Translations under genes and position numbers: made by a program
Assembly (NCBI GenBank): GCA_964491455.1
Contig: CAZBFM010000001.1
Span: forward strand, 149,388 to 213,387
Direction of reading: 5' to 3'
DNA length: 64,000 nt
Origin: an uncultured Candidatus Saccharibacteria bacterium
GTDB taxonomy: Bacteria; Patescibacteriota; Minisyncoccia; 2-02-FULL-40-12; GWA2-44-9
Notes under the pieces: model-generated
What the model was told of the DNA's origin: nothing
Databases searched by the model: none
What the model saw: the letters and a program-made list of their open reading frames with translations, nothing else
Shown: piece after piece, positions 2,753-20,544 of the stretch
Position numbering within the stretch: the first letter of the stretch is position 1
How the letters are laid out: each line of letters starts with the position of its first letter

Positions 2753-3394
2753 ATGGTGGAGATTATTCCTGCCATTATGACCGAGTCGGATGAAGAGTTT
2801 GTTCGCCACATTCATCTTTTAGAGCGAAGTGGAATCAAACGCGTACATCTTGATATTTCAGATGGTATTTTTGTTCGCATGAAGACCATCCTGGGTCACG
2901 AACAGCTCCGCCGCATCACCACGAGTCTCCAATTTGATGTGCATCTTATGGTGCAGAAGCCAGAAATACAGTGTTCTCGGTGGTGTGACATATCCAATAT
3001 ATCGCGATTTATTGTTCACGTGGAAACAACACAGCTGTTTCCGCAGTTACGAGAGCAAACACTCCAGCTGCGGAAAGAACTCGTGGCAGCTCTGAATCCC
3101 GAAACGTCATTGAGTCGCCTGGAGAGCGTGCTTCCTCATGTGGATATGGTGCAATTCATGACGATTCATCCTGGCGCGCAAGGTCGCACATTCCTGCCTC
3201 AATCGCTTGATAGAGTAACTGAATTTCATGCACAGCAACCGGAGATACACATTATGGTGGATGGCGGGATTAACCCTCATACTATTTCACAATGCGTGCA
3301 CGCTGGAGCGACGCACGTTGTCTCAGGAAGTTTTGTGATGCGATCTGCCGATCACTTGCGAGCGCTTCGAGAGCTCGAGGAAGCGGTGCGGTGA
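2753..3394 (+). CDS. rpe: Ribulose-phosphate 3-epimerase
   Basis: IIPAIM (IAPSIL-like), HLDISDGIFV, DVHLMV, HVETT, MTIHPGAQGRTF, MVDGGIN. Confidence 0.8.
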   Translation: MVEIIPAIMTESDEEFVRHIHLLERSGIKRVHLDISDGIFVRMKTILGHEQLRRITTSLQFDVHLMVQKPEIQCSRWCDISNISRFIVHVETTQLFPQLREQTLQLRKELVAALNPETSLSRLESVLPHVDMVQFMTIHPGAQGRTFLPQSLDRVTEFHAQQPEIHIMVDGGINPHTISQCVHAGATHVVSGSFVMRSADHLRALRELEEAVR

Positions 3395-3421
3395 TATGAT
3401 ATACTGAAGTCACTTGGAGGG

Positions 3422-4419: not shown

Positions 4420-5685
4420 ATGGATTCTCCTCACCAAAAACTAGGAAGGCTACTCCGCACAAAGCCTGAAGTTCTCGAAGCGATGGAGCGTAAGATGAAC
4501 CGTATTTCGGGGCAACAGGGCGTTTTGTTCGATATTCAGCGGCAGATCGAGATCACTGTTGAGCGAACGCTTGCTGGGTTGGGTTTGTCATCGAACGATT
4601 CAGCGGAAGATGTGAAGCGTGTGCTTGCGGAGCGAACGACACACCTCGACGGGCACCTCTATCGAATGCTCGGAAAGCCTGACTTATCAAATCCGACCGT
4701 GGCGTGCCAGCAACTCTGTTCCGTTATTTCGAAGGTGTTCACGCCGCCCAAGGGGCTTTTTATAAAACACGAGGTAGCGATGCGAATGCTAGAAAAATAT
4801 CCACCTAAGAATTTATTGGATCACTTTGGCTACTCGAGTATCGCTGAGCTTTTTGAGAAGGAAGGCTTTGCTTCGGTGATGGCGTCGTTGAGATTTTCTC
4901 AAACGCAGGAGTGGATGCACCAATTCTTCGATGTTGCATATGGAGAGCTCACGGCAAGTGATTTTGAGGAGCGTGATGTTGAGCATCTAATCTTGGATGA
5001 AAAATGGGTTCATGTAGCCGAAAAATATATGGCGAAGAAGTATCACAACGTATCTCACCTCAAAGAATTTGGCGTGATATTCATTGTGCCAATTGATATC
5101 ACAAAACCGGGAGCAACCCTACAAGTGTTCACGCTCATTCTGCACTATCTTCATGAGGTGCCGTTTTACGCTAGTCTATTTCGAAGATATCGCGACGAAA
5201 AGGATTTTGCCACGACATTCAAAAGCTTGCTTCGGGGGGATGTACCATCGGGAAGCGCGCCCGACCATGGCAAGATGACGTGGCGCATTGTGCAGCGCTA
5301 TCTTACCAAGGACAATCCGGATGACTTTCGACTATTCGAGCCTCATGTGAATCCGGAGGCCGATCACTGGTGGCGAGCGGAGGAAGATATCGGAAGGCTC
5401 TCGCGAATCCTTGGGACGCATACGGGGGAGCTTGATCTAGGCTGGTGGAGTGGCTTGGATTTTGTTGGCGCGGAAATAATGAGTGTTGCATCGGGGAGGC
5501 CAGAGCTCATCAGTTTTGATCTTATCGACCTTCTTATGACTGTCGTGCATGGGTCTAACTCGCAATTTTTGTATCATCAACAGGAATCACTCTGGAACAA
5601 GATCTTTGTCGAATACATGGGGCGAGAGCGCATGCATTCACTGATCGAAGAGAATTTGGTTACTGGCTTCATAGATCTGTCATGA
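4420..5685 (+). CDS. Hypothetical 421-aa protein with no recognisable family, embedded in the sugar-phosphate cluster
   Basis: Long ORF with balanced composition. It is tightly packed between the PfkB kinase and fba, and its TGA overlaps the fba ATG (ATGA). Confidence 0.55.
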   Translation: MDSPHQKLGRLLRTKPEVLEAMERKMNRISGQQGVLFDIQRQIEITVERTLAGLGLSSNDSAEDVKRVLAERTTHLDGHLYRMLGKPDLSNPTVACQQLCSVISKVFTPPKGLFIKHEVAMRMLEKYPPKNLLDHFGYSSIAELFEKEGFASVMASLRFSQTQEWMHQFFDVAYGELTASDFEERDVEHLILDEKWVHVAEKYMAKKYHNVSHLKEFGVIFIVPIDITKPGATLQVFTLILHYLHEVPFYASLFRRYRDEKDFATTFKSLLRGDVPSGSAPDHGKMTWRIVQRYLTKDNPDDFRLFEPHVNPEADHWWRAEEDIGRLSRILGTHTGELDLGWWSGLDFVGAEIMSVASGRPELISFDLIDLLMTVVHGSNSQFLYHQQESLWNKIFVEYMGRERMHSLIEENLVTGFIDLS

Positions 5686-6545
5686 AAGCACTTCAGGAAT
5701 ATTTTTTGCAAGCGAGACACGAGGGCTGGGCAATCGGCCACTTCAACTTTGCGACAGCAGATGTGTTGCGTGCAATTGTGGAAGGAGCGCAGATTGGCGG
5801 AGCGCCATGCGTGATGGTTGGTACGAGCCCGGGCGAGGCCGAATTTCTTGGCCTTGATACTGCGGTAGCTCTCGTGCGGGCAATCCGAGAAGCTTCGGGT
5901 TTTCCCGTGTTTCTGAATGCTGATCATTTTAAGTCGTTTGATGCCTGCAGAGCCGCTATTGATGCGGGGTACGATACGGTGCTGTTTGACGGCGCCTCGC
6001 TGCCCTATGACGTGAATGTGATCGAGACGCGTCGTTTGTGGCAGTATGCACAGTCAAAGCGAGGGAGCTATATGATAGAAGGCGAGCTCGGCGTAATGCG
6101 AGGTTCAAGTGAAATGCAAAAGAGCATCGCTATTAGCTCGAGTGATTTCACAAAGCCTGAGCAAGCTGAAGATTTTGTGCGTCGCACGGGAGTAGAGCGT
6201 CTAGCTATAGTCTTTGGAAATATTCATGGAATTGTAACGGATCAAAAAGAATCACTTGATCTCGATCACCTCCGCACGGTGCTGAATGCGGTCCCTGATG
6301 TAGCGATCGTGCTGCATGGAGCATCAGGGATTCCTGATGATATGATTGTGGACGCTATACGGGGCGGAATAACTAACGTGCATTTCAACACAGAGCTTCG
6401 CGTGGCGTATCAAAGAGGTATTGCGGAGACGATTGAAGCGCAACCCGACCAAACAACTCCTTACAAGTTACTCGCTCGCGCCGATCAGCACGTGCGCGAT
6501 CTCGTCGCGCAGAAGACTCGTGTTTTTATGCAAAGTAATTCGTAG
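5682..6545 (+). CDS. fba: Class II fructose/tagatose-bisphosphate aldolase
   Basis: GWAIGHFNFATADVLRAIVEGA, LNADHFKS, VFGNIHG, LHGASGIPDD (class II aldolase motifs). Confidence 0.85.
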   Translation: MKALQEYFLQARHEGWAIGHFNFATADVLRAIVEGAQIGGAPCVMVGTSPGEAEFLGLDTAVALVRAIREASGFPVFLNADHFKSFDACRAAIDAGYDTVLFDGASLPYDVNVIETRRLWQYAQSKRGSYMIEGELGVMRGSSEMQKSIAISSSDFTKPEQAEDFVRRTGVERLAIVFGNIHGIVTDQKESLDLDHLRTVLNAVPDVAIVLHGASGIPDDMIVDAIRGGITNVHFNTELRVAYQRGIAETIEAQPDQTTPYKLLARADQHVRDLVAQKTRVFMQSNS

Positions 6546-6673
6546 CTACTCCTGTAAAGTTACCCACAGTTTACACTGCTCTTAGGTCTGATATATTCGT
6601 TCGAACTCTTATGCGATCTAAGCCATCGTTGGCGTCGCATCGATGAGTCTGTATACAAATAAATCTATAATTC

Positions 6674-8419
6674 ATGAGCACGTCGTTTCGTGGTTGGAGA
6701 TCAGTCATAACGGGAACGGTGATAGTTATAACGATTGTCATGCCGTTTTTGCGTGGGATATCTAGCTCCGAAGCAGTTGTTGTTGCGACTACACTGTTTA
6801 CGGATGGTTTCGAATCAAATAATTTAAACAACTGGACATCAGTTGGTAGTGGATGGGGCGTATCTAGTAGTAATCCGCACACTGGCTCTCGAAGAGCGGG
6901 CATAAGCAGTGATACCGGGCAAAATCCGAATGAATTACGCAAGAATGTTTCGACCGTCGGTTACGATGGCATATCATTTGACTATTGGTATTTAGCGAAT
7001 GACTTAGAATCACAAGATTATACATTTGCTCAATGGTCATCCAATAGCGGTAATACATGGAATACCTTATTTTCCATTAATAGCACCGTTGATGACAATA
7101 CGTGGCATCACAACACGCATTCTCTTCCTGTTGATGCGGAGAATCTAGCTGCGTTTCGAATCCGATTCCTGGCAAACTTAAATAGCTCGAATGATTTCGT
7201 CAGAATTGATGACGTCACCGTTTCTGGATACGCGATTGCAACGCCAACGCCGACACCGAGTAATGAGCCAACTCCGACGCCGACACCGAGTGATGAGCCC
7301 ACCCCCACTCCTTCACCGTCCGCAACACCTCTGCCGGGATCGCGTATGGCGTATGGAACGCTTATCATAGAGAAGGTGATACGAGGTGGCACGAAGACCT
7401 TTACGGATTTTGCATTTGTCTTTGGAGGCGGAGAGAATGATCATTTTAATTCCGGAGGCAGAAATGAATACGTGCGTGCAGTTGGAACATACCTTGTTAG
7501 CGAGCCACCAACAGAGGGTTTCACCGCAACGTTTGGTGGAGATTGCGACGAACAAGGCCAAATAAGTGTCCTGGAAGGTCAAGCGGTCACGTGTGTGATT
7601 ACAAACACATATGCAACTTGGCAGGAGGGTGATCCAATCGCAACGCCTGCGCCAGCGTCACCAGTCGCCCCAAGCACGCCTCAATCGCAGGAGGAAGCAT
7701 CTTCCGAGCCAGTAGGGACATTGGTGGTCCAAAAGATCATCGTATTGTCATCCGCAAGCTTTACTGAATTTGGATTCACGGTAGCAAGTCAAACGCAACA
7801 ATTTGAGGCGGATGGGACGAATGCCGTAAGCCTGACTCCCGGTCAGTATACCGTTCAGGAGGTCGTTACTCAGGGATTTGAGGTGACATATTCCGGTTCT
7901 TGTGATGTAGGCGGCGTGGTGACTGTCGAACTGGGGCAGACTTCTACGTGTGTGATTACTAATACGTTAGCAGTCGGCGGTTTTAATCCAGGCGAAATCC
8001 AATCAACGCCGACTCCCAGTCCGACACCATTGGCTACACCAGCTCCACGTGCAGCTACAAGAGAGCGCGTTGATGCGGGGCGAGTGAGTGATGAGTCATC
8101 AGGAGTAACTCTCACACCCACGCCAGAAGCATCAAGATCTGATGAGCCATCGAATGATCAGGCAGCAGCAATCGGTACATTCTTGGGTCTTGATGTGTGC
8201 TCGAGTGCCGGACAGACGATGTGGTGGATTACTATGTTTGGACTCGCTATATTCTTGATGTGGTTTGGACGAACTCGTGGGTCGTATCCATTACTCATTC
8301 TTGCGTATTTTGTCATTTGGGCACTCTGGGCTGTTCAGATATGTTCATTTGGATTTGGCTGGATGCCGGCAATCATGGGAGGTGCAAGCTGGCTTGTCGC
8401 GGTGCCTCGTAAGTCGTAA
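6674..8419 (+). CDS. Secreted/cell-surface protein with an N-terminal beta-rich domain, PT-rich linkers, two tandem Cna-B/prealbumin-like domains and a C-terminal two-helix membrane anchor
   Basis: N-terminal hydrophobic signal/TM. PTPTPSNEPTPTPTPSDEPTPTPSPS linkers, also seen as a DNA direct repeat at about 7240..7320. Two paralogous ~90-aa domains end in ...TCVITNT. The C-terminus MWWITMFGLAIFLMWF...AIMGGASWLVAV is hydrophobic. Confidence 0.75.
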   Translation: MSTSFRGWRSVITGTVIVITIVMPFLRGISSSEAVVVATTLFTDGFESNNLNNWTSVGSGWGVSSSNPHTGSRRAGISSDTGQNPNELRKNVSTVGYDGISFDYWYLANDLESQDYTFAQWSSNSGNTWNTLFSINSTVDDNTWHHNTHSLPVDAENLAAFRIRFLANLNSSNDFVRIDDVTVSGYAIATPTPTPSNEPTPTPTPSDEPTPTPSPSATPLPGSRMAYGTLIIEKVIRGGTKTFTDFAFVFGGGENDHFNSGGRNEYVRAVGTYLVSEPPTEGFTATFGGDCDEQGQISVLEGQAVTCVITNTYATWQEGDPIATPAPASPVAPSTPQSQEEASSEPVGTLVVQKIIVLSSASFTEFGFTVASQTQQFEADGTNAVSLTPGQYTVQEVVTQGFEVTYSGSCDVGGVVTVELGQTSTCVITNTLAVGGFNPGEIQSTPTPSPTPLATPAPRAATRERVDAGRVSDESSGVTLTPTPEASRSDEPSNDQAAAIGTFLGLDVCSSAGQTMWWITMFGLAIFLMWFGRTRGSYPLLILAYFVIWALWAVQICSFGFGWMPAIMGGASWLVAVPRKS

Positions 8420-8428
8420 TCCTAAAAA

Positions 8429-8458
8429 AGACAACCCCCATTACGGGGGTTGTCTTTT
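8429..8458 (+). terminator. Rho-independent terminator
   Basis: agacaaccccc-atta-gggggttgtct followed by TTT. Confidence 0.7.
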
Positions 8459-8551
8459 AGCTGGTTCTCTAGTATAGTATGCGGACTTACTACAGATACC
8501 TTATGGTCTTCACGGCACTTCGGAGCCGCGAAGAAAGTAAAGGATCTTGCA

Positions 8552-9253
8552 ATGATGGCAAAAGCAAAATCTCAGACAAAGTTAGAAATATCCGCGGAGC
8601 CACGTGAAGTTGTCGGGCGTCGCGTGAAGCACATGCGAGCAGAGGGTATCCTCCCAGCTGTACTGTATGGTAAGGGCCAGGAAGCTCTCAATCTTCAGGT
8701 GCCAGTTCGTGATTTTGAGAAGGCATTTCGTCAGGCAGGTGAATCGACACTCATTTACTTGAATGTCGGAAAAGATTCCTACCCCACGATTATCAAGGAT
8801 GTTGCGCGTAACTTCTTGACGGGCGCAATCCTGCACGCTGACTTCTATAAGGTGTCTCTCACGGAGAAGATCAGGGCAATGGTACCTGTTGTGTTTATCG
8901 GAGAGAGTCTTGCGGTTAAGGATCTCAAGGCTATCTTTGTGCGTATTGCAAATGAACTCGAGGTAGAGGCGCTTCCTCAAAACTTGCCACACGAGATTAC
9001 CGTTGATATCAGTTCATTGAAAGCGTTCGGAGACCAGATAACGATTGCTGACCTTGCGGTCGCCGATGTGGCCTTCACTGCAGAAGCAGGTGATGTTGTT
9101 GCAACGGTTCAGGAGCCGAAGTCTGAAGCCGAACTCGAAGCAGAATTGGCCGCTCCAACGACCGACGTAACTGCAGTCGAAGAGATTAAGAAAGAGAAGC
9201 CAGCGGATGAGGGTGAGTCAGCTGATGGCGAAGCCGCAGCACCTCAAGAGTAA
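8552..9253 (+). CDS. rplY: Ribosomal protein L25/general stress protein Ctc with an acidic C-terminal tail
   Basis: ILPAVLYGKGQEALNLQV... is L25-like. The ATG at 8552 is in frame within track ORF 8450..9253. Confidence 0.85.
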   Translation: MMAKAKSQTKLEISAEPREVVGRRVKHMRAEGILPAVLYGKGQEALNLQVPVRDFEKAFRQAGESTLIYLNVGKDSYPTIIKDVARNFLTGAILHADFYKVSLTEKIRAMVPVVFIGESLAVKDLKAIFVRIANELEVEALPQNLPHEITVDISSLKAFGDQITIADLAVADVAFTAEAGDVVATVQEPKSEAELEAELAAPTTDVTAVEEIKKEKPADEGESADGEAAAPQE

Positions 9254-13395: not shown

Positions 13396-13417
13396 CATGT
13401 TCACGAAGAGAACATCG

Positions 13418-13654
13418 ATGTACTACGTCTATATCTTGCGTTGTAGAGGAGGGAGGCTCTACACGGGTATCGCGAAAGATGTCGAGTCGAGGTTTCTGCA
13501 GCATCAGAGAGGCAAGGGCGCTCGCTTCACGCGTGCGCATCCACCCGAGAGTATTGTCTATTGCGAGCCCGTAGCAACGCGATCCGATGCGCTGAAGCGT
13601 GAATATGCGGTCAAACAGATGAGTCATGAGCAGAAGTTACAGCTTGTTTCATAG
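13418..13654 (+). CDS. GIY-YIG domain nuclease (UPF0213/YhbQ-like), small
   Basis: MYYVYILRCRGGRLYTGIAKDVESRFLQHQRGKGARFT is a GIY-YIG core. Track ORF 13316 reads through tRNA-Tyr, so the real start is the ATG at 13418 (or 13396). Confidence 0.75.
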   Translation: MYYVYILRCRGGRLYTGIAKDVESRFLQHQRGKGARFTRAHPPESIVYCEPVATRSDALKREYAVKQMSHEQKLQLVS

Positions 13655-13783: not shown

Positions 13784-13948
13784 ATGTCCCAAGACAATCT
13801 TCTTCGATTGAAATGCCAAAAGTGCAAGAGCGCAAACTACTACACCTCAAAGAACAAAAAGAAGGTGGAGCGCAAGCTGGAATATAAGAAATTTTGCAAA
13901 ATGTGCCGGAAGACAACTCCCCACAAAGAAGCAAAAATGACAGGCTAA
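13784..13948 (+). CDS. rpmG: Ribosomal protein L33 (54 aa; below the ORF-track size cutoff)
   Basis: Manual translation MSQDNLLRLKCQKCKSANYYTSKNKKKVERKLEYKKFCKMCRKTTPHKEAKMTG*, a zinc-ribbon L33. Confidence 0.8.
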   Translation: MSQDNLLRLKCQKCKSANYYTSKNKKKVERKLEYKKFCKMCRKTTPHKEAKMTG

Positions 13949-13953
13949 TCACA

Positions 13954-13976
13954 AAATCCCCGAAAGGGGATTTTTG
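13954..13976 (+). terminator. Rho-independent terminator after rpmG
   Basis: aaatcccc-gaaa-ggggattt followed by TT. Confidence 0.7.
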
Positions 13977-13978
13977 GT

Positions 13979-14009
13979 AAAAAAAGACCGCTGGGCGAGC
14001 CATGCGGTC
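13979..14009 (-). terminator. Rho-independent terminator for the minus-strand gene ending at 14018
   Basis: gaccgc-tgggcgagccat-gcggtc with a T-run on the minus strand (A-run at 13979..13985 on plus). Confidence 0.55.
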
Positions 14010-14017
14010 TCGAATTG

Positions 14018-14557
14018 CTACTTTCTATTTGCGATGGCAACGAACTCGGGGTCATAGCCCATGGATGCGTCAATTTGTCCGTAGGTGCGTCTTCCTTGAA
14101 TTCCGCGAGCTCCGAAGGAGGAGGTAGCGAAGGGTCCACATCCTCGATTCGGATAGAAGCCGCAACTCCGTTCCGCCTCGATATACTGCTCCTGTGTCGC
14201 CTCCTGCCATGGAAGACCGCAGACGGAGAGCCAAAAGCGCTCACGCGGTGCATCAGACTTCCTCCCGGGCGTGAGACTATGTAGCGCTTTGAGTAACCAC
14301 ACGGGGTCGCTTTGAATATTCTTGCGCCAGTGAAAGTAGCGGCGCACGAGGGTGGCTACGGTGTCGCCTTCATTGATAGGGCATGGCGTGTCATTGAACC
14401 AGAACCACGCGGGGTAATTGCGTAGGTTATCCAGAGCATCACGTGCCGCCAGGTCAACCGTACCAGTTCCTTGCATGAAGTGGTAATGCCAGAGTCCAGC
14501 CGCGTCTTGCTGTGATACGCCGACTATCGATTCGCGTACTTTCATGTTACTTGCCAT
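14018..14557 (-). CDS. Hypothetical protein (179 aa), Trp/Cys-containing, no family recognised
   Basis: The ATG for MASNMK is preceded by AAGGAG at 7-nt spacing on the minus strand. The track's 14602 alternative start lacks an RBS. Confidence 0.55.
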   Translation of the reverse strand: MASNMKVRESIVGVSQQDAAGLWHYHFMQGTGTVDLAARDALDNLRNYPAWFWFNDTPCPINEGDTVATLVRRYFHWRKNIQSDPVWLLKALHSLTPGRKSDAPRERFWLSVCGLPWQEATQEQYIEAERSCGFYPNRGCGPFATSSFGARGIQGRRTYGQIDASMGYDPEFVAIANRK

Positions 14558-14723
14558 GCGATCTCCTTTGGTTGTCGAAATACTACTGAAATGATGGCAC
14601 AAATAATAACAAATGTCAAAGTATTAGAATGAACTTTAATACAATGACAAGATTGTGCAACTTGATTCGTGTTGTAGGATATATACTCGGTCGATTCGTA
14701 TAACTAACAAAAAGGAAACCACC

Positions 14724-15734
14724 ATGGAAAAAAAGTCACTTCTCGCGCAGCATTTCACTCCAGAGATAGAAGCGCAGCTAGCGAGCGTTCGCACGGCGAA
14801 TGGATTCACAGTCGCTGATGTCGTCCGTTCAGGGCAGCAAAACCCTGATAGTAGCGTTGGAGTGTATGCCGGCGATGAAGAGTCGTATAAGGCCTTTGCC
14901 CCGCTCCTAGATCCGGTGATCGAGAGCTACCACGGTCATGGTCCTGAGGATACGCACCAGCGAGACCTTTCTGTCGAGAGTCTCGGGGATGTGCACGATT
15001 TGGACCCGAGTGGCGAGCGCATTGTCTCCACTCGTATTCGCGTTGGACGCAATCTCAAGGGCTTTGCTTTTGCCCCTGCGATTACCAAGGAGTCGCGCGA
15101 AGAAGTCGAGCGACAGGTGGTCGCTGCGCTTTCGAGTCTTACCGGTGAGCTTGCGGGTACCTATTACCCATTGAGTGGCATGAGCGAAGAGACCGCATCC
15201 AAGCTTATCGCTGATCACTTCCTCTTTAAGGAGGGCGACCGTTTTCTCGAGAGCGCCGGAGCGAATCGCGATTGGCCGAGTGCCCGTGGTATTTTTCATT
15301 CTGCAAACAAGCAGTTCTTGGTGTGGGTGAATGAAGAAGACCAGCTTCGCATCATCTCCATGCAACCTGGTGGAAATGTGCGCGAGGTGTTCGCGCGGTT
15401 GTCGACTGCAATAGGGGAGCTCGAAAAGAAGCTCACCTTCGCCTACGATGATCGTCATGGATACCTCTCGAGTTGTCCCACGAATCTTGGAACCGCGATG
15501 CGCGCGAGTGTGCACGTGAAACTACCAAAGCTTGGCGCAACTGACGCGCTCAAGGAAGAATGTGCAAAGCTCGGCTTGTCAGTGCGTGGTATCCACGGGG
15601 AGCACTCCGAGAGCGAGGGTGGCGTGTATGACATTTCCAACAAGCGTCGTCTTGGTGTCAGTGAGGCTGAAGCGGTGAAGCTTATGGCTCATGGGGTTCA
15701 GCACCTACTGGAACTCGAGAGTACGCTCGCGTAA
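14724..15734 (+). CDS. ATP:guanido phosphotransferase of the phosphagen/arginine-kinase type, with N-terminal substrate-specificity domain
   Basis: The active-site signature CPTNLGT is present. The N-domain motif VGVYAGDEESYKAFAPLLDPVIESYHG resembles arginine kinases. Flanked by RIRVGRNLKGFAFAP and GGVYDISNKRRLG. The ATG has AAAGGAAACC 7 nt upstream. Confidence 0.85.
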   Translation: MEKKSLLAQHFTPEIEAQLASVRTANGFTVADVVRSGQQNPDSSVGVYAGDEESYKAFAPLLDPVIESYHGHGPEDTHQRDLSVESLGDVHDLDPSGERIVSTRIRVGRNLKGFAFAPAITKESREEVERQVVAALSSLTGELAGTYYPLSGMSEETASKLIADHFLFKEGDRFLESAGANRDWPSARGIFHSANKQFLVWVNEEDQLRIISMQPGGNVREVFARLSTAIGELEKKLTFAYDDRHGYLSSCPTNLGTAMRASVHVKLPKLGATDALKEECAKLGLSVRGIHGEHSESEGGVYDISNKRRLGVSEAEAVKLMAHGVQHLLELESTLA

Positions 15735-15740
15735 ACGATA

Positions 15741-15770
15741 GACCCCGGGAATTTCCCGGGGTCTTTTTTG
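15741..15770 (+). terminator. Rho-independent terminator after the arginine kinase gene
   Basis: agaccccggg-aattt-cccggggtct followed by TTTTTT. Confidence 0.8.
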
Positions 15771-15839
15771 GAAGGTTTACAATGATTGGTATGTGACATA
15801 TTGTACGTGCTGAAGAGAGATCAACAAAGGGAGTGTACG

Positions 15840-16070
15840 ATGGCGCAACCGTATATCGTGTTCGTATTTGATTCGCAATGTCCGCGTGGTGGCTGGCAGG
15901 ACGTGCTACGAAAAACACCGAATGGCGATGTCTGGCGGTTTGAAACGTTTGAAGAAGCGGCGGCAACTGCTCAAGCATATTGCACCGCATATTTTCCGAA
16001 CCGCGGTCGATTCCAGGTGGTCGACATCACGAAGGCAAAGTTTATTGGTTCTGGTGGGTTTTCCGACTAG
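15840..16070 (+). CDS. Hypothetical small protein (76 aa)
   Basis: ORF MAQPYIVFVFDSQCPRGGWQDVLRKTPNGDVWRFETFEEAAATAQAY... has balanced composition. No family recognised. Confidence 0.35.
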   Translation: MAQPYIVFVFDSQCPRGGWQDVLRKTPNGDVWRFETFEEAAATAQAYCTAYFPNRGRFQVVDITKAKFIGSGGFSD

Positions 16071-16082
16071 CAGGAGGTTACG

Positions 16083-16352
16083 ATGAAACGGATTCGTGAC
16101 GTAGTTGCATGGATTGTAAGCCATCTTCCTTTGTCTTCAGAACATCGTCTCGCTGAACGATGGCGACGCGAAGAAGATGAAAGTCGCTCGCGGCACCAGC
16201 ATCGATATACTCAACAACAGCGTGAAAAGTTCAGAAATGAACTTGAAGCGGAGGTGGATGTATTTCTTGAGGAAACGAATGGGCGGCCATCTACTCCGGA
16301 GCAATGGGCGTGGTACGAGAGTATTCGACGACGAGAAGCGATTATCGAGTGA
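16083..16352 (+). CDS. Hypothetical small charged protein (89 aa)
   Basis: Arg/Glu-rich ORF MKRIRDVVAWIVSHLPLSSEHRLAERWRREEDESRSRHQHRY... ending 45 nt from the tRNA-Trp 3' end. Confidence 0.35.
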   Translation: MKRIRDVVAWIVSHLPLSSEHRLAERWRREEDESRSRHQHRYTQQQREKFRNELEAEVDVFLEETNGRPSTPEQWAWYESIRRREAIIE

Positions 16353-16396
16353 GAACCCAAATGACCACTTGCGTGGTCATTTTTCTTTGTGCGTGT

Positions 16397-16467
16397 GCGG
16401 GGGATGAAGGAATCGAACCCTCGTTATCGGTTTTGGAGACCGACGTCCTGCCACTGAACGAATCCCC
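16397..16467 (-). tRNA. tRNA-Trp (anticodon CCA)
   Basis: Reverse complement folds as acceptor GGGGGAT/ATCCCCC, D-arm GTTC-AGTGGCA-GGAC, anticodon arm TCGGT-CTCCAAA-ACCGA, T-arm GAGGG-TTCGATT-CCTTC. Confidence 0.75.
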
Positions 16468-16596
16468 CAATTGTCGCCGAATAATACCACGAATTATGCA
16501 CTCACGCCAGATGTTCGTAACACTCGTTGCTTTCTTGATGTGCGTTCTGTAGAGTACGCCCAAGGTCGTTTACAATTTTCGGATTGGAGGTGCATC

Positions 16597-17715
16597 ATGG
16601 CATCGAAAAAGAAATCGAGCAATGAATCAATTGCATCGCGCAAGAAGTTGAAGGCACTGGACGAGCTCCGTCTTGAGCTCAAACTCGACAAGGTCAGCAA
16701 GGAAGCAAAGCGACTGAAGGCAAAGTACAATGCCGCGCTTGGCCAGCTCATTATTCGCGAACGCGAAATCGACGCGGTTATGGGTCTCCGAGGCCCCATC
16801 GAAACATTTAAGCTGACTGCAAAGACTCCATCTGGCGATAGCGAGGCAACTGCGTTCATGGTTGCTAGCGATTGGCATGTGGAAGAAGAAGTTCGTGCCG
16901 CAATTGTGAATGGGAAGAATCGTTACGATTTGGCCCTTGCAAAGAGCCGTGCTGAGCAATTCTTCGTCAACGGTCTTCGTCTCATCGAGATTAACCGTCA
17001 GGCGACGTCCATCAAGAACCTCGTTCTAGCGCTTCTCGGAGACTTCATCTCCGGTGATATTCACGATGAGCTCGTTGAAGTAAATCAGCTTCTTCCCGTT
17101 CCGGCGACAAAGTACGCCGCTTCTCTCATTGCATCTGGAATCCAATTCCTGCTCGACGAGGGTGGATTCGATGAAATTGTTGTGCCCTGCCATTCAGGGA
17201 ATCACGGTCGTACGACGAAGAAGGTGCACATCTCGACTGAGGCCGGCCATTCTCTCGAGTATTTGTTGTACACCTTGTTGCAGATGACGTTCCGCCATGA
17301 TCCTCGAGTGAAGTTCGTTCTTTCAGACGGTTATCACTCATATCTGCGTGTCTACGATAAGACGGTTCGATTCCATCATGGGCACATGGTGAAGTTTCAG
17401 GGTGGCGTCGGCGGAATTCATATTCCTGTCAATAAGGCCATCAACCAGTGGAATAAAATCACGTGGGCTGATCTCGATGTGTTTGGCCACTTCCATCAGA
17501 TGAAAGATGGGGGCAACTTCATCTCAAATGGCTCACTGATCGGATACAATGGGTTCGCCTTGAGCATTAAGGCAGACTACGAGCCACCGAAGCAGGCTTT
17601 CTTTCTCATCGATCGAAAGAAGGGTCGGACGATTACGGCACCCATTTTGTTCGATGACAGCAAGCGGGCTGGTGTAAAGATGCCTGAAGTGATTCCCACT
17701 GAGCCAGGTAAGTAG
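16597..17715 (+). CDS. Calcineurin-like metallophosphoesterase with Lys-rich N-terminal coiled-coil
   Basis: Metallophosphatase motifs SDWHV (D-x-H), GDFISGDIHDE (GD..D), CHSGNHGR (GNH), HGH...GHFHQ. RBS GGAGG upstream of ATG 16597. N-terminal 70 aa are K/E-rich helical. Confidence 0.7.
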   Translation: MASKKKSSNESIASRKKLKALDELRLELKLDKVSKEAKRLKAKYNAALGQLIIREREIDAVMGLRGPIETFKLTAKTPSGDSEATAFMVASDWHVEEEVRAAIVNGKNRYDLALAKSRAEQFFVNGLRLIEINRQATSIKNLVLALLGDFISGDIHDELVEVNQLLPVPATKYAASLIASGIQFLLDEGGFDEIVVPCHSGNHGRTTKKVHISTEAGHSLEYLLYTLLQMTFRHDPRVKFVLSDGYHSYLRVYDKTVRFHHGHMVKFQGGVGGIHIPVNKAINQWNKITWADLDVFGHFHQMKDGGNFISNGSLIGYNGFALSIKADYEPPKQAFFLIDRKKGRTITAPILFDDSKRAGVKMPEVIPTEPGK

Positions 17716-17720
17716 GCAGA

Positions 17721-17747
17721 GCCCCTCACGAGAGTGAGGGGCATTTC
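17721..17747. terminator. Bidirectional terminator hairpin
   Basis: gcccctcac-gaga-gtgaggggc followed by atttctt. Confidence 0.6.
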
Positions 17748-17966
17748 TTAGTTTGAGATATCAATCTTTTTGGCGCGAGGCTTGTCGCGGGAGAGCTCGA
17801 TTCCGCGCATAAGGACTTCGATATCCTCGGTCTTGTACATGCGATAGTTATTCATTGGGTTGCGATAGGCAACCAGCTTTCCTTTTGCATCCCAATTGCG
17901 CACCGTAAGTGGCGTGACTCCCATGAGACGTGCGACTTCTTGAACCATGAGATACTTCTTTGGCAT
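17748..17966 (-). CDS. MerR/excisionase-family helix-turn-helix DNA-binding protein (72 aa)
   Basis: MPKKYLMVQEVARLMGVTPLTVRNWDAKGKLVAYRNPMNNYRMY is an excisionase/MerR-type HTH. Confidence 0.6.
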   Translation of the reverse strand: MPKKYLMVQEVARLMGVTPLTVRNWDAKGKLVAYRNPMNNYRMYKTEDIEVLMRGIELSRDKPRAKKIDISN

Positions 17967-18072
17967 AGGAGGGTTTTCTAAGGTACCGTTACAGTACCTG
18001 AGCGTCACCCCGTGGTCAACATGTAGTCTATCCACATGGTGGGCAATACGGCTGTGCTAGTATGAATGCACT

Positions 18073-20544
18073 ATGGAAGGCATGTATGCCCAGTCCCCAG
18101 AAGCGATACAGATCGATCAGGGGCAAGCTGAAGCGGCCATTTCCGCACAGCTTACTGCAGTGAAGTTCTCGGAGTGGGGGATTGGTGGGGCAATGTATGA
18201 CAAAATCGTACAGGTCCTGTTGTATGTAGCAGTTGTTCTCATCCCACTATTTTATTTGCCGTGGACGAGTAGCTACATCGAATATAATAAGCAGCTCTTG
18301 CTTATTGGAGTGTCCTCGATTGGTCTCGTGGTGTGGCTTCTTGGAGCGGTTATTAGTGGAAAGTTGACGATACGTACGTCACTTATCGATAAGGGGGTAT
18401 TGGGTTTGTTGGTTTCTGCAGTTATAGCAACTGTATTCTCGTTGACACCGTTGAAGTCTTTATTCGGTGTCGGAACGTCGCTTAGCTCATCACTTCTAAG
18501 TGTTATTGGCTTAGCGCTCTTCTATTTCTTGTGCGTAAACGCGCTCCATGATAGGGGGCGCATGCTTCGCTCCGCTTTAGTGGTGTCACTTTCTATTACG
18601 TTGCTACTCGGGCTCTTCCAGATGATTTCGTTTAATGTACTGCCAGGTGCCTTCACGAATTCGCGCGCATTTAACACTGTCGGATCAATTAACGCGTTAG
18701 GTGTTCTTGCAGCGGTTGCATTATCGTTGTTTGCAAAGACAATCTATAAAAATACGAATCGATACATGTTCGGAGTCGCGATCGCGGGCGTTACGTTTGC
18801 GATTATGATTCTTGGTATTCTCAACTGGTGGGTCCTCTGGGTGATCGCACTCGGTGGGATGCTTGCAATGATCGCCTTCGATAGCTTGAATGCGACGCAG
18901 CTTTCGAATGACTATGGATCAAAAAAGAATCGATTCGCAATGTCACGATTTGTGGTGCCTATGCTCGTTGTCGTGTTGGGCGCGTTCTTGCTTCTAGTTA
19001 AATTCGACCTGAAATCCGTAAAAGGGCAGTTCCCCGTCGAGGTGGCTCCTTCATATGGGCTTTCTCTAGATGTTGCCTCAGAGACGCTCTTGCATAAGCC
19101 GCTTTTTGGATGGGGACCGGAGAACTTCTCGCTAGCTTTCGATAGATATGGAGCGGGGAGTCTTGCGAACACGCAATTTGCCAATGCGCAATTTTTTGAT
19201 GGCGCAAACGAAATCGTAAATGTGCTTACTCAGCAAGGTCTGGTTGGTCTGCTCGCATTCGGATTTTTGTTGTGGTGTTTAGTGCAGGTATTCATGCGAT
19301 TCGGGACCGCCATTTCTGATTCAGTGGCTCGTGGCGAGGGTGCATCGCTCGCCATCCAGTCGACCGGTACGTTGGCGGCGCTCATTGCCATGATTGTCAC
19401 ACTGTTCATATATCCGATGAACATAACATTGTGGTTCGTGTTCTTCGTGTTGATGGCGTTGGCTTCTCTTGTTATTTCCGGTGATGAATCGCGAACGGTT
19501 GATATCGAGGAGCGCCCCATGTATTCCCTGGCGGCATCGCTTGGATTCATCGTTGCGTTGATACTCGTGTTGAGTGGATTGTATTTCACATCGGTGCGCT
19601 ATTTCGGTGATGTAAAGTTTGCACTTGCGAAAAGTCAGGAAACGCCGGCGAAATCCATGGAGATGCTTTCGGCTGCTATTAATCTCAATGCTTCCAGCGA
19701 CAGATATGTGCGCGAGGCGTCTCAAGTTGCGCTCTCCTTACTTCGGGAAGAGGTCGCCAAGAAAGAAGGTGGCGATGAGCAGTCTCAGCGCATTCAGAAT
19801 CTGATGGGATCCAGTATACAGCTGGCCCAGAAGGCTGCCGCAATAAATCCAGAGGAATCGCTGAACTGGAGCAACCTCGGCCAGGTGTATCAATCAATGA
19901 CGGGAATCGTTGATGACGTTGAGAAGCTCTCTGAGGATGCCTTTAAGAAGGCTAGTGAATTGCGTCCCGGGGATCCTTCATTTGACAATGCTATTGGTCA
20001 AATGTGGTTAGCCCGTTCTGATTTGATTCGGCAGGTGGTTAGCAAGGCGACCGGCGCGAATGCTGAAACGTTGAAGCAGCAGCAGAAGGATTCATTGGTG
20101 AATGCTGAGGCAGCTTTTGATCGAGCAATTGAAAAGTCACCACAGTACGGATTGGCGATCTACAATAGAGCTGCTGTAAAAGATCGACAGAACAATGTGA
20201 AGGGTGCGATTGAGGACTTAGAGAAGATTGCTCCCTCAAATTCGAATCAACCAACATTGATGTTCGAAATCGGCTTGCTCTATATCCGTGATGGTCAAAA
20301 AGACAAAGCGATTGCAGCGCTACAGCGAGCCGTCTTGCTTGCGCCACAATATGCAAATGCGCGATGGTATCTCGCATTACTACTTGAAGAGAAAAATGAC
20401 ATTGCGGGAGCATTGGCTCAGCTCCGTGAGGTCGCGAAAGGTAATTCTGACAATGCGGAGCTTCAGGCAAAGATCACGAGTCTCGAGGCTGGACAACGAC
20501 AAATCCCTCCAAACAAGGTGATTGAAACGAAACCACTTCAGTAG
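18073..20544 (+). CDS. O-antigen ligase/polymerase (Wzy_C)-like polytopic membrane protein fused to C-terminal TPR repeats
   Basis: At least 10 predicted TM helices, a Wzy_C-like loop region, and a C-terminal TPR region (AIEKSPQYGLAIYNRAAV...AIAALQRAVLLAPQYANARWYLALLLEE). Start uncertain. Confidence 0.7.
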   Translation: MEGMYAQSPEAIQIDQGQAEAAISAQLTAVKFSEWGIGGAMYDKIVQVLLYVAVVLIPLFYLPWTSSYIEYNKQLLLIGVSSIGLVVWLLGAVISGKLTIRTSLIDKGVLGLLVSAVIATVFSLTPLKSLFGVGTSLSSSLLSVIGLALFYFLCVNALHDRGRMLRSALVVSLSITLLLGLFQMISFNVLPGAFTNSRAFNTVGSINALGVLAAVALSLFAKTIYKNTNRYMFGVAIAGVTFAIMILGILNWWVLWVIALGGMLAMIAFDSLNATQLSNDYGSKKNRFAMSRFVVPMLVVVLGAFLLLVKFDLKSVKGQFPVEVAPSYGLSLDVASETLLHKPLFGWGPENFSLAFDRYGAGSLANTQFANAQFFDGANEIVNVLTQQGLVGLLAFGFLLWCLVQVFMRFGTAISDSVARGEGASLAIQSTGTLAALIAMIVTLFIYPMNITLWFVFFVLMALASLVISGDESRTVDIEERPMYSLAASLGFIVALILVLSGLYFTSVRYFGDVKFALAKSQETPAKSMEMLSAAINLNASSDRYVREASQVALSLLREEVAKKEGGDEQSQRIQNLMGSSIQLAQKAAAINPEESLNWSNLGQVYQSMTGIVDDVEKLSEDAFKKASELRPGDPSFDNAIGQMWLARSDLIRQVVSKATGANAETLKQQQKDSLVNAEAAFDRAIEKSPQYGLAIYNRAAVKDRQNNVKGAIEDLEKIAPSNSNQPTLMFEIGLLYIRDGQKDKAIAALQRAVLLAPQYANARWYLALLLEEKNDIAGALAQLREVAKGNSDNAELQAKITSLEAGQRQIPPNKVIETKPLQ

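Follow-up and report, generated by a model that had tools for sequence, protein, structure and literature searches.

A phage-type metallophosphoesterase beside a variable tRNA-Trp slot in a Patescibacteria chromosome

When unfamiliar genes gather around a tRNA gene in a bacterial chromosome, are they the remains of a mobile element or are they native to their place? We asked this of one locus in a stretch of 64,000 nucleotides (the window) from an uncultured Candidatus Saccharibacteria bacterium of the Patescibacteriota (contig CAZBFM010000001.1, positions 149,388 to 213,387, forward strand). A sequence-only reading had taken positions 15786-18035 of the window for a remnant mobile or defence islet made up of two small open reading frames (ORF-A and ORF-B) bracketing a minus-strand tRNA-Trp(CCA) gene at 16397..16467, a 372-aa metallophosphoesterase (MPE) and a 72-aa helix-turn-helix (HTH) protein. 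We arrive at a different answer, which we consider probable: the region is native Patescibacteria (Paceibacteria-type) chromosome, holding a phage-derived MPE, an independent HTH protein and a recombination-prone slot at tRNA-Trp. The features on which the argument turns are as follows.

16397..16468, minus strand: tRNA-Trp(CCA), found by ARAGORN (Rfam tRNA at 16398..16468, 62 bits)
16597..17715, plus strand: phage-type MPE, 372 aa, its start preceded by GGAGGT
17721..17742, no strand assigned: GC-rich hairpin where the MPE and HTH genes converge, probably a two-way terminator
17748..17966, minus strand: BldC-like small MerR-type HTH protein, 72 aa (Pfam MerR, 2e-9)
18073..20544, plus strand: membrane protein with C-terminal tetratricopeptide (TPR) repeats, 823 aa (Pfam TPR matches), divergent from the HTH gene

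The MPE carries the motifs of calcineurin-like metallophosphoesterases (DxH, GDxxD, GNH[D/E], H, GHxH) in order, as SDWH at residue 91, GDFISGD at 148, GNHG at 201, HHGH at 260 and GHFH at 297, and all of them are invariant in an alignment of 52 homologous sequences. An AlphaFold2 model of the protein (mean pLDDT 82.6) shows a long Lys-rich helix (residues 20-65) followed by an MPE core with the four-layer alpha/beta sandwich of the calcineurin-like superfamily, in agreement with the earlier description of such motifs behind a Lys-rich N-terminus. The helix-coding part of the gene (16580..16780) is the least conserved in comparison with the nearest relative of the window, with 82-85% nucleotide identity versus 92-98% in the catalytic core, which matches the variable N-termini found across the MPE family; by Pfam annotation, a few homologs have an N-terminal HTH domain instead of the helix.

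We then placed the MPE in a family. No Pfam family matches it at E <= 0.1, Metallophos models included, and neither NCBIfam nor PADLOC yields a match. By contrast, the phage family phrog_284 ("exonuclease") matches residues 58-353 over profile positions 116-395 of 398 (E 6.4e-35); the profile search that the sequence-only reading had proposed thus leads to a phage family and not to a core metabolic enzyme. Examples of this family, such as gp28 of Synechococcus phage S-CBS1 ("DNA repair exonuclease") and gp26 of Bacteroides phage BU2-1, share the same motifs and a length of ~350-400 aa, and the window MPE is 33-39% identical to GenBank phage proteins and 50-60% identical to metagenomic phage copies. 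Unlike the phage copies, it is encoded on the chromosome of a bacterium of the candidate phyla radiation (CPR), among ribosomal-protein and tRNA genes and not within a phage replication module. In the literature we found no experimentally characterised member of phrog_284 and nothing specific on this class of MPE.

Protein and profile searches of solved structures found no MPE; fold comparison alone found them. Foldseek with the MPE model ranked PolD first (E 6e-9), and among viral models (BFVD) the best matches were phage proteins of ~400 aa named "DNA polymerase II small subunit" or "metallophosphatase" (E 1e-19 to 1e-16), whereas gp47/SbcD-type proteins matched far more weakly (E ~1e-6). 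The small subunit of archaeal PolD, DP1, is a 3'-5' proofreading exonuclease akin to the B-subunits of eukaryotic polymerases; members of this family combine an OB-fold with an MPE domain and are bound to DP2 or to the C-terminal domain of a B-family polymerase. The resemblance of the window protein to DP1 is limited to the MPE core, at 12-15% identity; its N-terminus is a single long helix without an OB-fold domain, and no gene for a DP2-like catalytic partner lies nearby in the window. It differs from Mre11, SbcD and T4 gp47 in having no adjacent gene for a Rad50/SbcC/gp46 ATPase, its neighbours being tRNA-Trp and the HTH gene. A Rad50/SbcC-type ATPase is likewise missing among the called neighbour genes of the annotated CPR loci L001-L008, the other CPR loci having been searched by tblastn with the window proteins only. 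The MPE is a nuclease-like protein that would work in the manner of DP1/Mre11, yet it lacks the marks of membership in either complex. Its fold and context suggest that it is most likely a stand-alone enzyme of phage DNA metabolism, a nuclease.

The family is found mostly in phages. At E <= 1e-3 it comprises 4,375 proteins among 8,000 candidates scored, and it occurs in 410 IMG/VR contigs and in 62 GenBank phages, including S-CBS1, KBS-S-2A and many siphophages of Bacteroides, Phocaeicola and Parabacteroides; Chromobacteriaceae prophages also carry it, beside the phages of Bacteroides and cyanobacteria. Homologs of 52-57% identity lie in phage contexts with UvsW/UvsY, with PrimPol, Dam and methylases, or with large structural genes. 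In Bacteroides phage BU2-1 the MPE follows a DUF2800 exonuclease and then a DUF2815 single-stranded DNA-binding protein, and precedes PolA; in S-CBS1 it lies near exoVIII and RusA. Genes that turn up repeatedly near the MPE in 101 phage and prophage loci encode RecA-like, MazZ-like and SPFH-like proteins, lysozyme and PolA; a RecA-like gene is no more than four genes away in nine of these loci, and directly downstream in six. One homolog locus, L022, was considered as an integrated element, having a tRNA-Trp gene 2.6 kb upstream of its MPE, and was rejected: the contig, binned into a bacterial metagenome-assembled genome, is phage-like and has a tRNA of its own (tRNA-Trp 3344..3415, MPE homolog 5632..6876), and it carries genes for GroEL, Band_7, endonuclease VII, a MazZ-like protein and class II ribonucleotide reductase.

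How, then, does a phage-type gene sit in this chromosome? We compared the locus with stretches from relatives and homologs, labelled L001-L061, of which L015 is the nearest relative of the window. Read from left to right, the window has a tRNA cluster (Thr-Tyr-Thr), rpmG, orf194, an arginine kinase gene, ORF-A, ORF-B, tRNA-Trp, the MPE gene, the hairpin, the HTH gene on the minus strand, the divergent gene of the 823-aa TPR protein, YceG, L10 and L12; the TPR gene is the start of a conserved right anchor that continues with YceG, L10 and L12. The order that recurs in Patescibacteria is S2, EF-Ts, a 212-aa TPR protein, tRNAs with GIY-YIG, rpmG, a variable interval, MPE, HTH (minus strand), a ~820-aa TPR protein, YceG, L10 and L12. 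Within it, Paceibacteria-type genomes hold the MPE at one chromosomal position, in the order rpmG, tRNA-Trp, variable interval, MPE, HTH (minus strand), TPR, YceG, L10, L12. Synteny holds in L001, L006-8, L015, L017 and L027, with MPE identities to the window of 96% (L015), 76% (L001), 67% (L017) and 65% (L006-8 and L027). It is partial in L003, L018, L020, L023, L024 and L046: rpmG, tRNA-Trp, MPE and HTH are present in L020 and L046; part of the order is kept in L018; rpmG, tRNA-Trp, MPE and YceG are present in L003 (labelled Niyogibacteria); and in L023 and L024 (the latter labelled Buchananbacteria) the MPE adjoins YceG, L10 and L12.

The MPE is not a simple core gene, being patchy in CPR bacteria and showing similarities out of step with those of core genes. 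L059 and L060 are at least as close to the window by core genes (L12 84%, TPR protein 55-57%) and have HTH, the ~820-aa TPR gene, YceG, L10 and L12 but no MPE, with three other genes in its place; in L061 the MPE is also absent from the site, and a mere 66 bp separate tRNA-Trp from the HTH gene. The earlier question of whether the region is missing in relatives therefore has a divided answer, since MPE, HTH and the downstream genes are syntenic in many relatives and the MPE is missing at the site in L059, L060 and L061. One of the genes in its place in L059 and L060 encodes a protein of 955 and 946 aa, respectively, without a Pfam match (6258..9125 and 6336..9176, both minus strand); by eye its DxH, GNHH and GDKH strings suggested a divergent MPE, a candidate that was rejected (hhalign probability 0.7%, hmmsearch E 0.19).

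The mismatch with core genes is seen in L018, with identities to the window of 33% for S2, 48% for EF-Ts, 58% for L12 and 63% for the MPE, and in L046, with 59% for S2, 59% for EF-Ts (L12 not available) and 52% for the MPE. The L046 MPE is nearest to IMG/VR phage copies (59%) and not to any CPR copy, and those of L018, L003 and L019 resemble one another at 86-93%. In a neighbour-joining tree eight CPR copies are united with 100% bootstrap, the other CPR copies being unresolved among phage copies, and a motif-based scan of 185,579 GTDB species genomes found the MPE at ~20 Patescibacteria loci, each in a species representative. Because the gene is missing at the site in some closer relatives, incongruent, partly mixed with phages in the tree and rare, these data point to entry of a gene from the phage pool into the tRNA-Trp-adjacent position and its retention there. 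Entry may have occurred once, with later transfers or losses, or several times, and transfer in reverse, from host to phage, may have occurred.

The same observations bear on the opposite history, in which the MPE would be an ancient cellular CPR gene, vertical at this locus with several losses, and phages would have captured it from such hosts. Its identical position in the distant lineages of L003 and L024, and in L023, fits that history, as does the full bootstrap support of the core CPR clade, and conservation across the family is high enough for saturation to mimic incongruence. An ancient gene is harder to square with the rarity of the MPE in the genome scan, with its carriage by phages of hosts as unrelated as Bacteroides, cyanobacteria and Chromobacteriaceae, with the phage affinity of the L046 copy and with its absence at the locus from the closer relatives L059, L060 and L061, and we consider this history unlikely.

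If the MPE came from phages, the region could still be the decayed remnant of a single integrative element or prophage at tRNA-Trp, to which ORF-A, ORF-B, MPE and HTH would all belong, with the HTH protein as its excisionase. Besides the phage-borne family and the incongruence, such a remnant would account for the position of the MPE, which adjoins tRNA-Trp wherever both lie on the stretch compared (the L019, L023 and L024 stretches have no tRNA-Trp), for the "empty" junction of L061, and for the weak matches of the HTH protein to excisionase models. However, the eight largest ORFs between 13.3 and 20.5 kb include no integrase or recombinase gene (Pfam; part also PHROGs, NCBIfam and PADLOC), and the sole recombinase-related matches are weak ones of the HTH protein itself, to phrog_6620 and to an IS607 HTH region. 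An att site in the form of a direct repeat of the 3' end or half of tRNA-Trp was found neither in 6-28 kb, a span of 22 kb that covers the ~10 kb distance suggested earlier, nor in 13.9-18.1 kb; the matches, of 13-19 nt, are at chance level, and one of 19 nt is an inverted T-arm match inside the RFHHGH codons of the MPE gene. On the missing integrase and the lack of a clear att repeat, our outcome is the same as that of the sequence-only reading.

Composition and selection also argue against an integrative remnant. The window has a GC content of ~50% throughout, and 15.8-18.0 kb shows neither a dip nor a change of skew, so that the deviant composition of a genomic island is lacking. GC is 0.50 in the MPE gene and 0.498 +/- 0.019 in the window, with arginine kinase and orf194 slightly GC-rich (0.54-0.55), and the codon usage of the MPE and HTH genes is indistinguishable from that of the long ORFs of the window (z-scores 0.14 and 0.48); the compositional contrast that the earlier reading had proposed to look for is not there. 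Measured against L015, at a background synonymous divergence (dS) of ~0.3, the ratio of nonsynonymous to synonymous divergence (dN/dS) is 0.02 for HTH, the most constrained gene of the locus, 0.05 for the 823-aa TPR protein, 0.06 for MPE, 0.09 for arginine kinase, 0.13 for YceG, 0.22 for orf194 and 0.29 for ORF-B. Together with synteny in many Paceibacteria-type genomes, native composition and these low values for MPE and HTH contradict the idea of the four genes as one mobile unit, as does the spread of the MPE across many lineages while the small ORFs are limited to the window and L015. There is no coherent mobile or defence islet here and no sign of recent mobility, and the MPE is under strong purifying selection. 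We therefore judge a decayed element to be improbable, and return to a resident, phage-derived MPE with an independent HTH neighbour.

That independence rests on the HTH protein itself. It scores 37.4 bits against Pfam MerR (PF00376; cut-off 28.2) and belongs to that family, and at 72 aa it is without the effector or coiled-coil domain that classical MerR regulators have at the C-terminus. An excisionase would score above the cut-offs of models such as Xis, HTH_17 or TIGR01764 and have a partner integrase; the protein stays below them (HTH_17, 25.2 versus 27; TIGR01764, 23 versus 28.8), and no integrase is near. Of the earlier label MerR/excisionase, the first half therefore stands and the second does not. 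Among solved proteins it comes closest to BldC of Streptomyces (6amk, E 2.5e-5; 6ama, E 1.5e-4), followed by the CarA DNA-binding domain and mycobacteriophage Xis (4j2n, E 1e-3). It resembles BldC and Xis in its ~70 aa and its MerR-type winged HTH without effector or coiled-coil domain, but differs from BldC in reaching 27.1 bits against NCBIfam NF033787 (cut-off 77) and, unlike BldC of Streptomyces, is found in Patescibacteria, where its gene adjoins that of a TPR membrane protein; the literature yielded nothing specific on BldC in Patescibacteria.

Homologs of the HTH protein number 383, and all those with source names come from Patescibacteria; the 120 listed homologs share 72-99% identity with the query in alignments that span 89-100% of its length, and the majority have 71-73 aa. 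The three homolog contexts examined have no MPE, and two of the three lie beside the gene of a ~820-aa TPR membrane protein. This divergent TPR gene is the recurrent neighbour of HTH whether or not the MPE is present, and the pair is syntenic in L001, L006, L015, L017, L059 and L060. Because its homologs are found throughout Patescibacteria and without MPE, the HTH protein is not the excisionase of an element here; an excisionase role is not supported, and we read it as a small host regulator that binds DNA and resembles BldC. The string TATCCACA recurs in the intergenic region between HTH and the TPR gene (17967..18072 in the window, with equivalents in L015, L001, L017 and L060), and in L001 its copy forms the palindrome GATATCCACAGGGTGTGGATATC; it may be a candidate operator or promoter element.

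Some observations weigh against a phage-derived MPE with an independent HTH neighbour. Neighbour clustering of the 101 phage and prophage loci found no universal partner gene of the MPE. In L020 and L046, MPE and HTH are adjacent without a detectable TPR gene, and a functional link between the two may exist. Further, backbone bootstrap in the neighbour-joining tree is below 50%, and transfer from phage to CPR bacterium is a tentative direction.

Could the MPE instead, with or without the HTH protein, serve as an anti-phage defence effector, an SbcD/Mre11-like nuclease under an HTH regulator? It has a nuclease-like fold, the gene adjoins a variable slot, and the HTH protein matches PADLOC mad1 (E 2e-12). 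However, mad1 is a generic small HTH protein and the rest of the MADS genes are missing; the MPE, ORF-A, ORF-B, orf194 and arginine kinase have no match among PADLOC models, and there is no ATPase or sensor partner. The family is found mainly inside phage genomes, in DNA-metabolism modules, and the locus has a fixed position among ribosomal genes. The defence islet proposed earlier thus finds no footing in the searches, and we hold a defence role to be very unlikely.

We return to the resident MPE and its host chromosome, in which the variable part of the locus lies to the left of the MPE gene.

13784..13948, plus strand: rpmG (ribosomal protein L33), conserved left anchor of the neighbourhood
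13949..16396, no strand assigned: variable slot from rpmG to tRNA-Trp, containing orf194, arginine kinase, ORF-A and ORF-B
14018..14602, minus strand: orf194 (194 aa), orphan
14724..15734, plus strand: arginine kinase, a full-length ATP:guanido phosphotransferase
15740-15764: strong terminator-like hairpin after arginine kinase
15840..16070, plus strand: ORF-A, 76 aa, lineage-restricted orphan
16083..16352, plus strand: ORF-B, 89 aa, lineage-restricted orphan
16359..16382, plus strand: terminator-like hairpin after ORF-B

The left anchor was found by tblastn, at 53-85% identity, in L001, L003, L006, L017, L018, L020 and L046, and Pfam Ribosomal_L33 is recorded for the neighbour in L003. The content of the slot is common only to the window and L015. 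In other relatives the interval from rpmG to MPE measures 0.2-4.3 kb and holds unrelated genes, among them ASCH, HD/PDEase-like, YdeI/OmdA, GNAT acetyltransferase and SLT_2 transglycosylase genes and orphans; what the small-ORF slot contains differs in every lineage, and no integrase or recombinase is among the genes of these slots. An Rfam scan of 13-19 kb found tRNAs only. The tRNA-Trp gene is read from the minus strand in the window, L015, L001, L006 and L017 and from the plus strand in L003, L018, L020, L046 and L061 (L061 in window orientation), a local inversion in the subclade of the window; no flanking inverted repeats were found at the inverted gene. The real "islet" is this variable slot at tRNA-Trp, which lies mostly left of 15786-18035. 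Something of the proposed mobile remnant survives in it, and in an MPE family that is mostly phage-borne and patchy in CPR bacteria.

ORF-A and ORF-B both lie on the 3' side of tRNA-Trp and do not bracket it, as had been described. The ATG at 15840, after AAGGGAG, is the likelier start of ORF-A, the earlier-listed 15786 being an upstream TTG, and the start of ORF-B is preceded by GCAGGAGG. Because the lengths of both are kept in L015, ORF-B has a dN/dS of 0.29 and ORF-A, at 60% identity, has conserved blocks, we take both to be real genes. Among 5.8 billion proteins there are three homologs of ORF-A, and among 1.8 billion representatives two matches to ORF-B. The best family match of ORF-A is phrog_1411 (unknown function; E 9e-4), to which we give no weight; ORF-B has no Pfam, PHROG, NCBIfam or PADLOC family at E<=0.01, and a match to Pfam AAA_24 (E 0.086, 13 bits versus a cut-off of 27) was dismissed as noise. 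Because nucleotide identity to L015 drops to 56-62% in 15680-15980 (ORF-A and the spacer upstream), versus 90-97% in the flanks, and dS is saturated in ORF-A versus ~0.3 in flanking genes, the comparison indicates that the ORF-A allele was probably replaced by recombination within the slot.

The other slot genes have features of their own. The arginine kinase is of metazoan type with both Pfam domains and is found only in the window and L015; its matches to solved arginine kinases lie at E 1e-113 to 6e-230, those to McsB-type protein-arginine kinases only at ~1e-26, and its GC is 0.55 versus 0.50 in the window. It is likely a horizontally acquired accessory gene. orf194, without a Pfam, PHROGs, NCBIfam or PADLOC match, occurs only in the window and L015 (83% amino acid identity), and its C-terminal part (14080-14280) is a divergence hotspot with 76-77% nucleotide identity. 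To the left of the slot, a small GIY-YIG ORF (~13397..13654, plus strand) lies between tRNA-Tyr and tRNA-Thr and is kept in several relatives; L006 and L007 also have a LAGLIDADG ORF within this cluster of tRNAs (6065..6805 in L006), so that nuclease genes are embedded in the tRNA array.

These observations suggest how the locus might work. A phage-derived MPE of the phrog_284 class would now be a resident host gene, whose two-metal centre, formed by D92/H94, D149, N202/H203, H261 and H298/H300, would hydrolyse phosphodiester bonds at DNA ends. It would act, much as PolD DP1 or Mre11/SbcD do, as an exonuclease or end-processing enzyme in replication, recombination or repair, but without a Rad50/SbcC or DP2 partner; its variable Lys-rich N-terminal helix could bind DNA or a partner, or serve in dimerisation. 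The BldC-like HTH protein would most likely regulate itself, the divergent TPR membrane protein gene, or both, and the recombination-prone slot around tRNA-Trp would gather lineage-specific accessory genes such as ORF-A, ORF-B, orf194 and arginine kinase. More tentatively, it is possible that a phage DP1/Mre11-like nuclease was captured, perhaps repeatedly, at the same tRNA-Trp slot in several CPR lineages and kept for the processing of host DNA ends, while cargo in the slot is swapped by recombination through the conserved tRNA and ribosomal genes that flank it, no dedicated integrase being involved.

With the MPE described here, a known but experimentally uncharacterised phage family without a Pfam model gains a new member on a chromosome. 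This result corrects a plausible islet call and shows that the family also persists, under selection, in the chromosomes of ultra-small Patescibacteria. On a small scale, the tRNA-Trp slot with its arginine kinase of metazoan type illustrates the entry of accessory genes into reduced genomes. Homologs from phages of cultivable Bacteroides or Synechococcus make the family a good target for biochemistry, and if the nuclease role holds true, the family would be a candidate for DNA-end processing in some CPR bacteria, whose repair systems are minimal.

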